From a phage: DNA of 3,285 nucleotides. The notes below the pieces were generated by a model, which made no database searches, was not told the DNA's origin, and saw only the letters and a list, made by a program, of their open reading frames with translations. Where the stretch lies: sequence record PZ195126.1; one strand, given 5' to 3'. Both the position numbers and the translations under genes were made by a program. Positions 1 through 3,285 of the stretch are shown in pieces. The first letter of the stretch is position 1, and every line of letters starts with the position of its first letter.

Positions 1-50
1 ACCATGCCGTCAGGTTTAGGTGACGGTATATTCCATATACCGGAGGATCT
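1..50 (+). other. Partial 5' untranslated leader with a predicted stem-loop (stem 4-12 pairing with 21-29, 8-nt loop 13-20)
   Basis: No ORF consistent with the family layout; CCGUCA (7-12) is the exact reverse complement of UGACGG (21-26), and the stem extends to 9 bp with one G-U pair. Leader is shorter than the roughly 130 nt typical of MS2-like phages, so the 5' end is probably truncated. Confidence 0.5.
43..47 (+). promoter_or_regulatory. Shine-Dalgarno sequence (GGAGG) for the maturation gene
   Basis: GGAGG lies 3 nt upstream of the ATG at 51. Confidence 0.6.
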
Positions 51-1223
51 ATGTTTCCGAAGTCAAATATCGACAGAAATTACAAGGTTAAACTTATTTC
101 TTACGATAAGAAAGGGAATCTTGTTTCCGACGACTCTTTTGAGCAAGTCGAAAACTATCTCTTTCAAAATCGTTCGAATACGTATAAACCCGGTTATCTC
201 CGTCGCGACTTTCGAAGACCTACTAACTTTTGGAACGGCTATCGCTGTTTCAATCAGCCAGTTGGTACTTTCACTCGGAAACTCTCTGATGGTGGGAGAC
301 AAGTAGCTGATTATGGTATTGTGAACCCTAATAAGTTCACTGCCAATAGTCAGCACTTGGGGGACAACATGGTAATTTACCCTGGTCCCTTCTCTATAAA
401 TATTGATCAGCGTGCTTCTGTTGAAGTCCTCAATAAACTTTCACAATCCAACCTCAATATTGGGGTTGCGATTGCTGAAGCTAAGATGACTGCTTCATTA
501 CTCGCTAAACAATCTATAGCTCTCATCAGAGCCTACACTGCCGCAAGGCGCGGAAATTGGCGAGAGGTGTTTTCACAACTCCTCATCTCCGAACACCGTT
601 TCAGAGCTCCCGCTAGGGATCTCGGAGGTCGATGGCTCGAACTGCAGTACGGCTGGTTACCCCTTATGAGCGATTTGAAAGCCGCATATGATTTGCTTAC
701 GCAAACCAAATTGCCCGCTTTCATGCCCTTGAGGGTTACCCGTACCGTTGGCGGAACGCATAATTACAAAGTGCGTAACGTCGAATCTGCAGGGGATACT
801 TGGTCCTATAGCGATCGTTTGTCGGTGAATTACCGAATATGGTATTTCATTTCCGATCCACGTCTCGCATGGGCTAGTTCCCTCGGGCTTCTTAACCCTT
901 TAGAAATCTTTTGGGAGAAGACGCCCTGGTCGTTCGTTGTTGACTGGTTCTTACCTGTCGGTAATCTTATAGAAGCCATGAGTAATCCTCTTGGCCTCGA
1001 TATTATTTCCGGCACGAAGACCTGGCAACTCGAATCAAAACTTAATGCGACGCTTCCGGCTTCGGGTTGGTTTGGAACTGCAAAGTTATCTGCATATGCG
1101 AAAGCATATGACAGATCTACTTTCTATTCCTTCCCTACTCCTTTGCCGTATGTGAAGTCTCCACTTAGTGGTCTTCATTTAGCGAATGCATTAGCCTTAA
1201 TCAACCAACGCCTGAAAAGGTAA
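51..1223 (+). CDS. mat: Maturation (A/assembly) protein, 390 aa
   Basis: 390-aa ORF with TAA stop at 1221-1223. The translation contains blocks I recognise from the MS2 A protein (e.g. [62 protein letters not shown]...ALALI.QRL). First gene in the canonical levivirus order, with SD upstream. Confidence 0.95.
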
Positions 1224-1227
1224 TTAC

Positions 1228-1231
1228 GGAG
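1228..1231 (+). promoter_or_regulatory. Shine-Dalgarno-like GGAG for the coat gene
   Basis: GGAG lies 8 nt upstream of the coat ATG at 1240, in the short intergenic gap after the maturation stop. Confidence 0.5.
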
Positions 1232-1239
1232 TTAGCCAT

Positions 1240-1632
1240 ATGGCAACTTTACGCAGTTTCGTACTCGTCGATAATGGCGGTACGGGGAATGTTACTGTCG
1301 TTCCTGTTAGCAATGCCAACGGCGTCGCTGAGTGGCTTTCTAATAACTCGCGCAGTCAAGCTTATCGCGTGACTGCCAGTTATCGTGCGTCAGGCGCGGA
1401 CAAGCGCAAATACACCATCAAACTCGAAGTGCCGAAAATCGTCACTCAAGTTGTAAATGGTGTTGAGCTGCCTGTCTCCGCATGGAAGGCTTATGCCTCT
1501 ATCGACCTGACCATCCCTATCTTTGCTGCAACCGACGATGTGACCGTTATTTCCAAGTCACTTGCCGGCCTGTTCAAAGTTGGGAACCCTATTGCCGATG
1601 CCATCTCCTCTCAGAGTGGCTTCTACGCGTAA
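1240..1632 (+). CDS. cp: Coat (capsid) protein, 130 aa including initiator Met
   Basis: ORF MATLRSFVLVDNGGTGNVTVVPVSNANGVAEWLSNNSRSQAYRV...GNPIADAISSQSGFYA is near-identical, from memory, to the phage GA coat protein and clearly homologous to MS2 coat (FVLVDNGGTG, ANGVAEW, SRSQAY, LTIPIFA, GNPI). TAA stop at 1630-1632. Confidence 0.97.
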   Translation: MATLRSFVLVDNGGTGNVTVVPVSNANGVAEWLSNNSRSQAYRVTASYRASGADKRKYTIKLEVPKIVTQVVNGVELPVSAWKAYASIDLTIPIFAATDDVTVISKSLAGLFKVGNPIADAISSQSGFYA

Positions 1633-1823
1633 TGGGTCTGAAAGCAAAACATAAGGAAAACCTATGTTCCGGTTCACAGAGATCGAAAAGACTCTATGTA
1701 TGGATCGCACTCGCGATTGTGCTGTCCGATTTCACGTCTATCTTCAGTCATTGGATTTGGGGTCTTCTGATCCTCATTCTCCGGACTTTGATGGACTTGC
1801 CTACCTTCGTGATGAATGTTTAA
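1632..1823 (+). CDS. L: Lysis protein (L), 63 aa, overlapping the coat stop and the replicase 5' end in a third reading frame
   Basis: ATG at 1632-1634 shares its A with the coat TAA stop (UAAUG). Product MGLKAKHKENLCSGSQRSKRLYVWIALAIVLSDFTSIFSHWIWGLLILILRTLMDLPTFVMNV has a basic N-terminus and a hydrophobic C-terminal segment containing an LS dipeptide, as in MS2-type L proteins. Position between coat and replicase matches the levivirus layout; 63 aa matches the GA lysis protein size as I recall it. Confidence 0.8.
   Translation: MGLKAKHKENLCSGSQRSKRLYVWIALAIVLSDFTSIFSHWIWGLLILILRTLMDLPTFVMNV
1648..1668 (+). promoter_or_regulatory. Coat-protein translational operator hairpin enclosing the replicase start codon
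   Basis: 5'-AACAUA-A-GG-AAAA-CC-UAUGUU-3': a 6-bp lower stem, one bulged A (1654), two G-C pairs, and a 4-nt loop AAAA (1657-1660). The replicase AUG (1664-1666) sits in the 3' arm. Architecture matches the MS2 operator ACAUGAGGAUUACCCAUGU (bulged purine, 2-bp upper stem, tetraloop). Confidence 0.8.
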
Positions 1824-3262
1824 CCAAACATCCTTCACTTGGAGACAGTAATTCGGACGCACGCCGTAAGGAATTGGCATATGCCAAACTTATGGATAGT
1901 GATCAAAGATGCAAAATCCAAAACAGTAACGGATACGACCACTCCCATATCGAGAGTGGCGTACTGAACGGTATACTCAAGACCGCTCAGGCCCTTGTGG
2001 CAAACTTACTTACGGGTTTTGAATCTCACTTCCTGAACGATTGTTCATTCTCCAATGGAGCCTCACAAGGGTTCAAGTTGCGGGATGCAGCGCCGTTTAA
2101 GAAGATCGCTGGGCAAGCAACCGTTACAGCTCCTGCTTATGACATTGCCGTGGCCGCCGTTAAAACGTGCGCGCCGTGGTATGCTTATATGCAGGAAACG
2201 TATGGCGACGAGACCAAATGGTTTCGTCGGGTGTACGGCAACGGTTTGTTTTCTGTTCCGAAGAACAACAAAATAGATCGGGCTGCCTGTAAGGAGCCTG
2301 ATATGAATATGTACCTTCAGAAAGGGGCGGGATCTTTTATAAGAAAACGCCTTCGTTCCGTCGGTATAGATCTTAACGATCAAACGTGCAATCAGGAATT
2401 AGCCCGACTTGGCAGCATCGATGGTTCACTCGCTACTATTGATCTTAGTAGTGCTAGTGATTCCATTTCTGACCGTCTCGTCTGGGATTTACTTCCACCG
2501 CACGTTTATTCATACCTCGCTCGTATCCGTTCGTCGTTCACTATGATCGACGGGCGTTTACATAAGTGGGGTCTATTTTCTACCATGGGTAACGGCTTTA
2601 CGTTCGAACTCGAGTCCATGATCTTTTGGGCTCTTAGCAAGAGTGTAATGCTGTCCATGGGTGTTACTGGCTCATTAGGCATCTACGGTGACGATATAAT
2701 CGTTCCTGTTGAATGTGCCCCGACCCTCCTTAAGGTATTATCCGCTGTGAACTTTCTTCCTAATCAGAAGAAAACATTCACAACAGGTTACTTTCGCGAG
2801 AGTTGCGGTGCTCATTTCTTTAAAGGTGCCGACATGAAACCTTTTTACTGCAAGCGGCCAATGGAAACCCTTCCCGATGTCATGTTGCTATGCAACAGGA
2901 TAAGAGGTTGGCAGACCGTTGGTGGAATGTCAGATCCGCGGCTCTTCCCGATTTGGAAGGAGTTTGCTGATATGATTCCGCCGAAGTTTAAGGGTGGATG
3001 TAACCTGGATCGCGACACTTACCTCGTTTCACCAGATAAACCTGGTGTCACATTGGTTCGTATTGCTAAGGTACGCTCTGGTTTTAACCACGCGTTCCCG
3101 TACGGTCATGAAAATGGCCGTTACGTCCATTGGTTACATATGGGATCGGGAGAAGTTCTCGAGACCATATCCTCCGCCAGGTTTAGGTGCAAACCTAACT
3201 CGGAATGGAGAACACAGATCCCTCTATTTCCTCAGGAATTAGAGGCCTGCGTTCTCTCCTGA
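1664..3262 (+). CDS. rep: RNA-dependent RNA polymerase (replicase beta subunit), 532 aa
   Basis: 532-aa ORF with TGA stop at 3260-3262. Contains the palm motif YGDDIIV (GDD at 2687-2695), an upstream acidic motif IDLSSASDS (D at 2441-2443) and an SxMGNGFTFELES motif (around 2579-2617). Size and position match levivirus replicases. Confidence 0.97.
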   Translation: MFRFTEIEKTLCMDRTRDCAVRFHVYLQSLDLGSSDPHSPDFDGLAYLRDECLTKHPSLGDSNSDARRKELAYAKLMDSDQRCKIQNSNGYDHSHIESGVLNGILKTAQALVANLLTGFESHFLNDCSFSNGASQGFKLRDAAPFKKIAGQATVTAPAYDIAVAAVKTCAPWYAYMQETYGDETKWFRRVYGNGLFSVPKNNKIDRAACKEPDMNMYLQKGAGSFIRKRLRSVGIDLNDQTCNQELARLGSIDGSLATIDLSSASDSISDRLVWDLLPPHVYSYLARIRSSFTMIDGRLHKWGLFSTMGNGFTFELESMIFWALSKSVMLSMGVTGSLGIYGDDIIVPVECAPTLLKVLSAVNFLPNQKKTFTTGYFRESCGAHFFKGADMKPFYCKRPMETLPDVMLLCNRIRGWQTVGGMSDPRLFPIWKEFADMIPPKFKGGCNLDRDTYLVSPDKPGVTLVRIAKVRSGFNHAFPYGHENGRYVHWLHMGSGEVLETISSARFRCKPNSEWRTQIPLFPQELEACVLS

Positions 3263-3285
3263 TNNNNNNNNGANNNCNCCNGACG
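3263..3285 (+). other. Start of the 3' untranslated region, mostly ambiguous bases (N)
   Basis: Sequence after the replicase stop is ctgatNNNNNNNNgaNNNcNccNgacg; the genuine 3' UTR (usually over 100 nt and ending in CCA in this family) is not present. Confidence 0.6.

Follow-up and report, generated by a model that had tools for sequence, protein, structure and literature searches.

The 3285-nt stretch of DNA analysed here (the window) covers almost the whole genome of an F-specific ssRNA coliphage of group II (Fiersviridae, Emesvirus japonicum), and its ORF map is canonical. The maturation protein gene (51-1223, 390 aa) has a strong Pfam match. The coat protein gene follows at 1240-1632 (+), with 130 codons and the stop codon TAA at 1630-1632 (Pfam Levi_coat, 132 bits), and the replicase β-subunit gene occupies 1664-3262 (+) with 532 codons (Pfam RNA_replicase_B, 730 bits). 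The coat protein sequence matches public database entries for BZ13/TL2 exactly. In megablast comparisons of window positions 1-3262, identity is 95.8% to BZ13 DL20, 94.7% to GA and 94.2% to BZ13 DL10, falling to 85.7% for BZ13 T72 and 85.4% for KU1; at the nucleotide level its nearest relatives, with 97.2% identity, are two Logan contigs. With MS2-type phages, the alignment is confined to the replicase core.

Arrangement of the coat-replicase junction

A further ORF, the lysis gene, spans the junction between the coat and replicase genes at 1632-1823 (+). It comprises an ATG at 1632-1634, 63 codons in all and a TAA at 1821-1823, and is recognized by annotated orthologues, PF11125 and phrog_8450. 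Read directly from the sequence, A1632 is common to the coat stop and the lysis start, giving a UAAUG junction at 1630-1634 (+). The lysis frame is +2 relative to coat and +1 relative to replicase; the start positions of coat, lysis and replicase modulo 3 are 1, 0 and 2, so that the three genes lie in three frames. From the replicase ATG at 1664 to position 1823 the lysis and replicase genes overlap by 160 nt, and replicase codons 1-53 are also read by the lysis gene in the second frame. A preliminary description of this DNA, made from its letters alone, had placed a 63-codon ORF at the A of the coat stop codon in a frame differing from those of coat and replicase, and on both points it was correct.

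In the program-made ORF listing, the lysis frame appears as 1482-1823 (113 aa), and in this isolate it is open upstream to 1467. We compared this region across 14 group II sequences (five from GenBank, three from IMG/VR, five from Logan, and the window). Only in the window do the 55 codons preceding 1632 contain no stop in the lysis frame; among the 13 relatives, every sequence has one to three in-frame stops there. Since these stops interrupt the upstream frame in every relative, 1632 is the conserved start, and the 113-aa ORF from ATG 1482 appears, on this comparison, to be an accident of this isolate.

The lysis product and its relatives

The 63-aa product, MGLKAKHKENLCSGSQRSKRLYVWIALAIVLSDFTSIFSHWIWGLLILILRTLMDLPTFVMNV, can be divided into three parts. 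The basic N-terminal domain (1632-1691 (+), codons 1-20) contains six K/R, one E and one H, and residues 1-21 carry a net charge of +5. Next comes the hydrophobic domain LYVWIALAIV followed by LS (1692-1727 (+), codons 21-32), which aligns to MS2 L residues 38-49 and is invariant in the 14 group II sequences. The LS dipeptide, the only one in the product, is at residues 31-32 (nt 1722-1727). The C-terminal domain (1728-1820 (+), codons 33-63) is largely hydrophobic and helical. A cationic N terminus, a hydrophobic segment at residues 21-30, LS at 31-32 and a C-terminal domain at 33-63 are the elements of the L-like layout of Chamakura et al. 2017, summarised in a later preprint as cationic N-terminal, hydrophobic, Leu-Ser and C-terminal domains (bioRxiv 10.1101/2023.10.16.562596).

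Residues 22-63 are hydrophobic, with a maximal Kyte-Doolittle 19-residue mean of 1.77 at residues 21-39, compared with 1.74 for MS2 L as a positive control. The charged N-terminal and hydrophobic C-terminal parts noted in the preliminary description are thus both present. A simple sum on the biological hydrophobicity scale of Hessa et al. 2005 gives a marginal transmembrane segment for the lysis product and for MS2 L alike. AlphaFold2 in single-sequence mode predicts one long helix over residues 4-62 (pLDDT 78, with 85-93 at residues 21-60), which is compatible with a membrane-embedded helical peptide but falls short of proof.

The ORF's own properties do not identify it as a gene. When replicase codons 1-53 were resampled with synonymous codons, the +1 frame stayed open in 31% of cases, and we therefore rejected ORF length and statistics as a criterion. 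The window also holds further alternative-frame ORFs of 60-113 aa, several of which are equally or more hydrophobic than the lysis ORF by the 19-residue measure, three of them also with LS. The ORFs at 4-306 and 1274-1372 score at least as high as the lysis ORF and contain LS, and those at 2409-2546 and 1835-1948 (-) are as hydrophobic without it; the frames at 4-306 and 2409-2546 are broken in relatives. The preliminary description had called a hydrophobic half with LS the hallmark of a lysis protein. LS is indeed present at residues 31-32, but the combination does not discriminate, because non-conserved ORFs of the window share both features. As ORF length, hydrophobicity and LS are not distinctive, the case for the gene rests on homology, on conservation and on the experimental work published for GA and KU1.

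Homology is evident at several distances. In GenBank, a lysis protein is annotated at the corresponding position of GA (X03869, 1717-1908, CAA27498), DL20 (1710-1901), DL10 (1664-1855), T72 (1645-1839) and KU1 (1735-1929, AAF67675), and in GA, DL20 and DL10 the annotated start is the last base of the coat stop. Alignment to the GA and MS2 L proteins had been proposed as a check. The window product is 94-98% identical in amino acids to the annotated group II orthologues (97% to KU1), and aligns with MS2 L in BLASTP over 51 aa at 43% identity (E = 8e-11). In that alignment the block LYVWIALAIVLSDFT is paired with LYVLIFLAIFLSKFT of MS2 L, and LS is in register with L48-S49. The product matches Pfam PF11125 (Phage_MS2_lysis) with 30.3 bits (E = 4e-7), above the curated cut-off of 25 bits, and phrog_8450 at 1.3e-31. 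Together, the annotated GA, BZ13 and KU1 orthologues, the Pfam match and the homology to MS2 L bear out the earlier reading of an overlapping lysis gene.

All 14 group II sequences have the ORF intact, and residues 15-48 do not vary among them. In the five Logan contigs that contain the gene, automatic gene callers overlooked it every time. In a comparison of six complete genomes, 5 of the 53 third positions of replicase codons inside the overlap are variable (9%), vs 217 of 479 (45%) in the rest of the gene (Fisher p = 1e-7). Since a third position in the replicase frame is a second position in the lysis frame, any such change would alter L. The fivefold lower variability inside the overlap is what dual coding would leave in the sequence, in keeping with the earlier proposal that 1664-1823 encodes two proteins.

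Low variability is also found elsewhere. Positions 1261-1349 of the coat gene are even more invariant than the overlap, and part of the constraint on the overlap could therefore come from RNA structure. An ORF at 1274-1372 was considered as a hidden cause of the invariant coat segment and is unlikely, given that its frame is closed in MS2 and L013, an uncultured contig described below. Its residues change where variation resumes, and the Pfam and PHROG searches returned no match for it.

Within group II, the lysis genes of GA, BZ13 (DL20, DL10, T72) and KU1 occupy the same genomic position as that of the window, with residues 15-48 identical and a length of 63 aa. GA, DL10 and DL20 share its UAAUG junction. 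In KU1, T72 and three metagenomic contigs, by contrast, an insert of 18 nt separates the coat stop from the lysis start, the start codon is UUG and the protein is one residue longer. Relative to these orthologues, the window protein has one isolate-specific substitution, D14G: residue 14, in the N-terminal domain, is G in this isolate and D in all relatives. In the replicase frame the codon goes from CGA to CGG without altering the amino acid, and the exact lysis protein sequence with G14 is absent from the public collection. By sequence comparison, D14G and the fortuitously open upstream frame are the only features peculiar to this isolate.

MS2 L (75 aa, PF11125), the prototype of the 'type II' proteins, shares with the window protein a homologous core, a basic N terminus, a hydrophobic domain, LS in register and a helical C-terminal domain. 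Its gene likewise lies +1 to replicase across the junction of the coat and replicase genes, with the operator hairpin and the 3' arm of the Min Jou helix inside it. The two differ at their starts. MS2 L begins 50 nt inside the coat gene, +1 relative to coat, whereas GA-type genes begin at the coat stop, +2 relative to coat, and the MS2 N terminus is 17 residues longer. In MS2, DnaJ dependence comes from the N-terminal domain, which is poorly conserved in GA-type proteins (PMC10229422).

A third lineage is represented by L011-L013, uncultured Emesvirus-like contigs from IMG/VR whose coat protein is 57% identical and whose nucleotides are ~66-70% identical over parts. Their L homologue resembles that of the window in its position at the same junction, its +1 frame relative to replicase, its phrog_8450 assignment and the conserved motif WLLLAISLSKYT; in L013 the hydrophobic stretch with LS is kept as WLLLAISLS. 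It differs in being 70 aa long, in starting 13 nt past the coat stop with no coat overlap, in having its own AGGAG Shine-Dalgarno, and in falling below the Pfam threshold (10 bits). A position at the coat-replicase junction in a frame used by neither neighbor, +1 relative to replicase, is thus common to the window, MS2, GA and L013. By every feature of membership that can be read from sequence, the protein belongs to the GA/BZ13/KU1 group and to the wider MS2 L family.

RNA structures and translational coupling

The 5' part of the lysis ORF overlaps two RNA structures. The replicase translational operator hairpin is at 1648-1668 (+), within lysis codons 6-13, and was identified by folding and by homology to GA feature 1733-1753, annotated 'pot. 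binding site coat protein'. Its stem pairs 1648-1653 with 1663-1668 and contains a bulged A1654; G1655-G1656 pair with C1661-C1662 beneath the loop AAAA (1657-1660), and the replicase AUG (1664-1666) lies within the 3' arm. A bulged A, a 4-nt loop and a stem-loop holding the replicase start codon, the features expected of the operator, are therefore all found here. The fold has -4.9 kcal/mol with z = -3.4, and the hairpin is invariant in the 14 sequences. The Rfam model RF02359 matched the operator below its gathering score of 40 (18.1 bits, E = 0.48) and at model positions 16-36 only. This shortfall is due to the partial match and to group II sequence differences (loop AAAA, not AUUA). We did not accept the sub-threshold match as confirmation, and the call is based on folding and the GA annotation. 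The preliminary description had assigned the operator to the dual-coding stretch 1664-1823. The whole hairpin does lie inside the lysis ORF, but most of it is upstream of 1664 and only the 3' arm falls within that stretch.

The second structure is a predicted long-distance helix of the Min Jou type, with GCUUUC at 1335-1340 (+), inside the coat gene, as the 5' arm and GAAAGC at 1640-1645 (+), in lysis codons 3-5, as the 3' arm. The minimum-free-energy fold of 1225-1700 pairs these segments with pair probabilities of 0.95-0.96. Folding MS2 in the same way recovers its classical Min Jou helix (1428-1433:1738-1743), which occupies the same relative positions but differs in sequence, and folding KU1 recovers the equivalent helix. 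Both arms are invariant in group II, without covariation within the group, so the helix 1335-1340:1640-1645 is a prediction supported by comparison between groups. It surfaced only in the full fold with pair probabilities; duplex folding of the coat 5' region against the junction was uninformative, being no better than shuffles. Lysis codons 1-13 would cross both the arm of this helix and the coat-protein-binding operator that controls replicase translation.

The lysis start itself has the TAATG overlap of stop and start (1630-1634) that characterizes GA-type termination-reinitiation. By inspection, no Shine-Dalgarno lies at a functional distance from the lysis AUG. The sole purine-rich element near the start is GAGUGG (1614-1619), 13-18 nt upstream, and the 25-nt context up to and including the start codon is identical to that of GA. 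The GA lysis gene also lacks a Shine-Dalgarno sequence, and reporter fusions showed that only ribosomes coming from the completed coat gene translate it: ribosome recycling factor frees them at the UAA, they bind again at the AUG within UAAUG, and in the GA construct about a quarter of the upstream ribosomes continued (PMC9955659). The near identity of the two sequences leads us to infer termination-reinitiation in this isolate by the same coupling mechanism as in GA. Ribosomes terminating at the coat UAA would be released and a fraction would rebind at the overlapping AUG, so that the output of L would be limited to a small, fixed fraction of coat synthesis. Being tied to coat synthesis, lysis would be delayed until coat protein, and hence virions, accumulate.

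An imperfect hairpin is found 5' of the lysis start at 1597-1623 (+), corresponding to GA feature 1683-1707, annotated 'pot. function in lysis gene control'. A role as a lysis control element is unsupported here, as the fold is no better than shuffles (z = -0.5); the hairpin is also partly broken by substitutions in relatives.

Mode of action and competing readings

The feature at 1632-1823 is almost certainly a single-gene lysis (L) gene, orthologous to the L genes of GA, BZ13 and KU1 and homologous to that of MS2. MS2 L inserts into the membrane and oligomerises (PMC10688784); its hydrophobic domain and LS are essential, while the basic N-terminal domain can be dispensed with and is responsible for the dependence on DnaJ (bioRxiv 10.1101/2023.10.16.562596). 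KU1 Sgl is toxic in E. coli and has a broad suppressor profile of 36 genes in envelope homeostasis, like that of MS2 L (PMC10229422). By analogy with these two proteins, the 63-residue product would insert into the membrane, oligomerise and trigger host autolysis without blocking net peptidoglycan synthesis, that is, act as a 'type II' or L-like Sgl. Its basic N-terminal domain is probably dispensable or regulatory, and would be followed by the hydrophobic helix, the conserved LS dipeptide and the helical C-terminal domain. Domain 1 is not conserved between the MS2 and KU1/GA proteins (PMC10229422), and DnaJ dependence may therefore not apply to the GA-type protein.

The same ORF could in principle be a chance open frame, with the low variability of 1664-1822 reflecting RNA-structure constraint from the operator, long-range helices and the replicase start domain. 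The frequency with which the +1 frame survives synonymous resampling agrees with this, as do the hairpin and long-range helix in the 5' part of the ORF and the strong invariance of 1261-1349, a segment with no credible second gene. Chance does not account, however, for a protein-level homology to MS2 L that exceeds the curated Pfam threshold, or for a third lineage with diverged nucleotides that has a homologous ORF in the same frame with the same motif. Moreover, the frame is open from 1632 in 14 of 14 group II sequences, yet stops stand directly upstream in 13 of 13 relatives, and published work shows that the GA gene is expressed and that the KU1 protein is toxic (PMC9955659, PMC10229422). 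We consider a chance frame vanishingly improbable. A functional lysis gene leaves a separate question, namely whether its real product here is the 113-aa protein from ATG 1482, or a coat-L frameshift fusion. This is suggested by the single listed ORF 1482-1823, by the frame being open from 1467 and by the window alone lacking upstream stops, but the extension is unconserved, ATG 1482 is replaced by GTG in KU1 and L018, no Shine-Dalgarno-like sequence precedes 1482, and the extension falls in heavily translated coat sequence. Experiments on GA also put initiation at the AUG of UAAUG (PMC9955659), and a longer real product is extremely improbable. That slippage late in the coat gene or a start at ATG 1482 might yield some N-terminally extended L or coat-L fusions is itself very doubtful; if true, extended L would be a strain-specific second route to the lysis protein that bypasses termination-reinitiation.

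For the 63-residue lysis protein initiated at 1632, the mode of action may also be questioned. A 'type I' protein antibiotic would inhibit a single lipid II pathway enzyme, as PP7 Sgl does with MurJ. The domain pattern of PP7 Sgl, LS included, is the same although its target is MurJ (PMC10229422, bioRxiv 10.1101/2023.10.16.562596), so the LS architecture is no proof of an L-type mechanism. Unlike PP7 Sgl, however, the window protein has real sequence homology to MS2 L. The suppressor profile of PP7 Sgl is MurJ-specific, whereas that of KU1 Sgl, 97% identical to the window protein, is MS2 L-like and without a dominant target such as murJ (PMC10229422). A type I mechanism is thus very unlikely, and an L-like action is favored.

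The lysis gene was already known. It was put forward in 1986 together with the GA genome sequence, all complete group II genomes carry an annotation for it, and it serves as a standard model of translational coupling. Target-finding screens have already made use of the KU1 orthologue. The reasoning of the preliminary description reached the right gene; ORF length, hydrophobicity and LS are non-discriminating in this genome. To this family the window contributes one further, near-identical allele, distinguished by D14G.

Coat–lysis junctions and the lysis frame

The overlap between the coat stop codon and the lysis start codon (UAAUG), as found in the window, is not a constant feature of group II. 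In a subgroup of KU1-type arrangement, comprising five genomes (L003, L004, L007, L008 and L010, namely KU1, T72 and three metagenomic contigs), an 18-nt insert separates the coat stop from the lysis start (junction at 1718-1737 in L003), and the overlap is absent. The lysis gene of these genomes begins with UUG and carries one additional codon 5' of the operator.

A homologue of the lysis protein L was also found in a third, more distant lineage of uncultured Emesvirus-like contigs (L011, L012 and L013), whose coat is 57% identical to that of the window and whose replicase consists of 585 aa. The homologue (70 aa; 1664-1876 in L013) starts 13 nt past the coat stop with its own AGGAG Shine-Dalgarno sequence. 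It matches phrog_8450, and its Pfam score is under threshold.

Two features of the lysis frame are peculiar to the window. The 55 codons ahead of the lysis AUG (1467-1631) contain no in-frame stop, whereas each of the 13 relatives has one to three. Thus, the frame nominally forms a 113-aa ORF from the ATG at 1482. Within the lysis gene, codon 14 (window 1672) is GGT, encoding Gly, whereas all 13 relatives have GAT, encoding Asp. In the replicase frame, the substitution is synonymous (CGA to CGG), whereas in the lysis protein Gly in place of Asp makes the N-terminal domain more positive by one unit of net charge. This allele could be either a genuine polymorphism or a sequencing error.

An invariant coat segment and its alternative frame

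Codons 8-37 of the coat gene (window 1261-1349) show no variable sites over 89 nt among the 14 group II sequences, and 3' of this segment ~60% of coat third positions vary. The 5' arm of a predicted long-range helix (1335-1340) falls within the segment, which far exceeds the arm in length. When region 1225-1400 was folded and compared with shuffles, it was more stable (z = -2.9).

An alternative-frame ORF on the plus strand (1274-1372) lies within the invariant segment and encodes a hydrophobic 32-aa product, MAVRGMLLSFLLAMPTASLSGFLITRAVKLIA, with two LS dipeptides. The ORF is open in all 14 group II sequences. We nevertheless rejected it as a candidate gene, because its frame is closed in both MS2 and L013, variation downstream alters residues of the product, and the product has no match in Pfam or PHROG; it is probably not a gene.

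A hydrophobic ORF within the replicase gene

A second alternative-frame ORF, located in the replicase gene (2409-2546, plus strand; 45 aa with a TTG start), contains a 19-mer whose hydrophobicity (KD 2.72) is the highest in the window. This frame is uninterrupted in GA, DL20 and DL10, whereas it contains stops in T72 and KU1, and it probably arose by chance.

Record completeness and gene calls

At its termini (1-50 and 3263-3285), the window is short of GA (3466 nt) by ~86 nt at the 5' end and ~119 nt at the 3' end. Shortly past the replicase stop, the sequence closes with consecutive N and other ambiguous bases. In the five Logan contigs (L014-L018), automatic gene calls include coat and replicase throughout, and the maturation gene in all except L015, which begins slightly upstream of coat and lacks it. 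The lysis gene was left out of the calls in all five contigs, although its ORF is intact in each.
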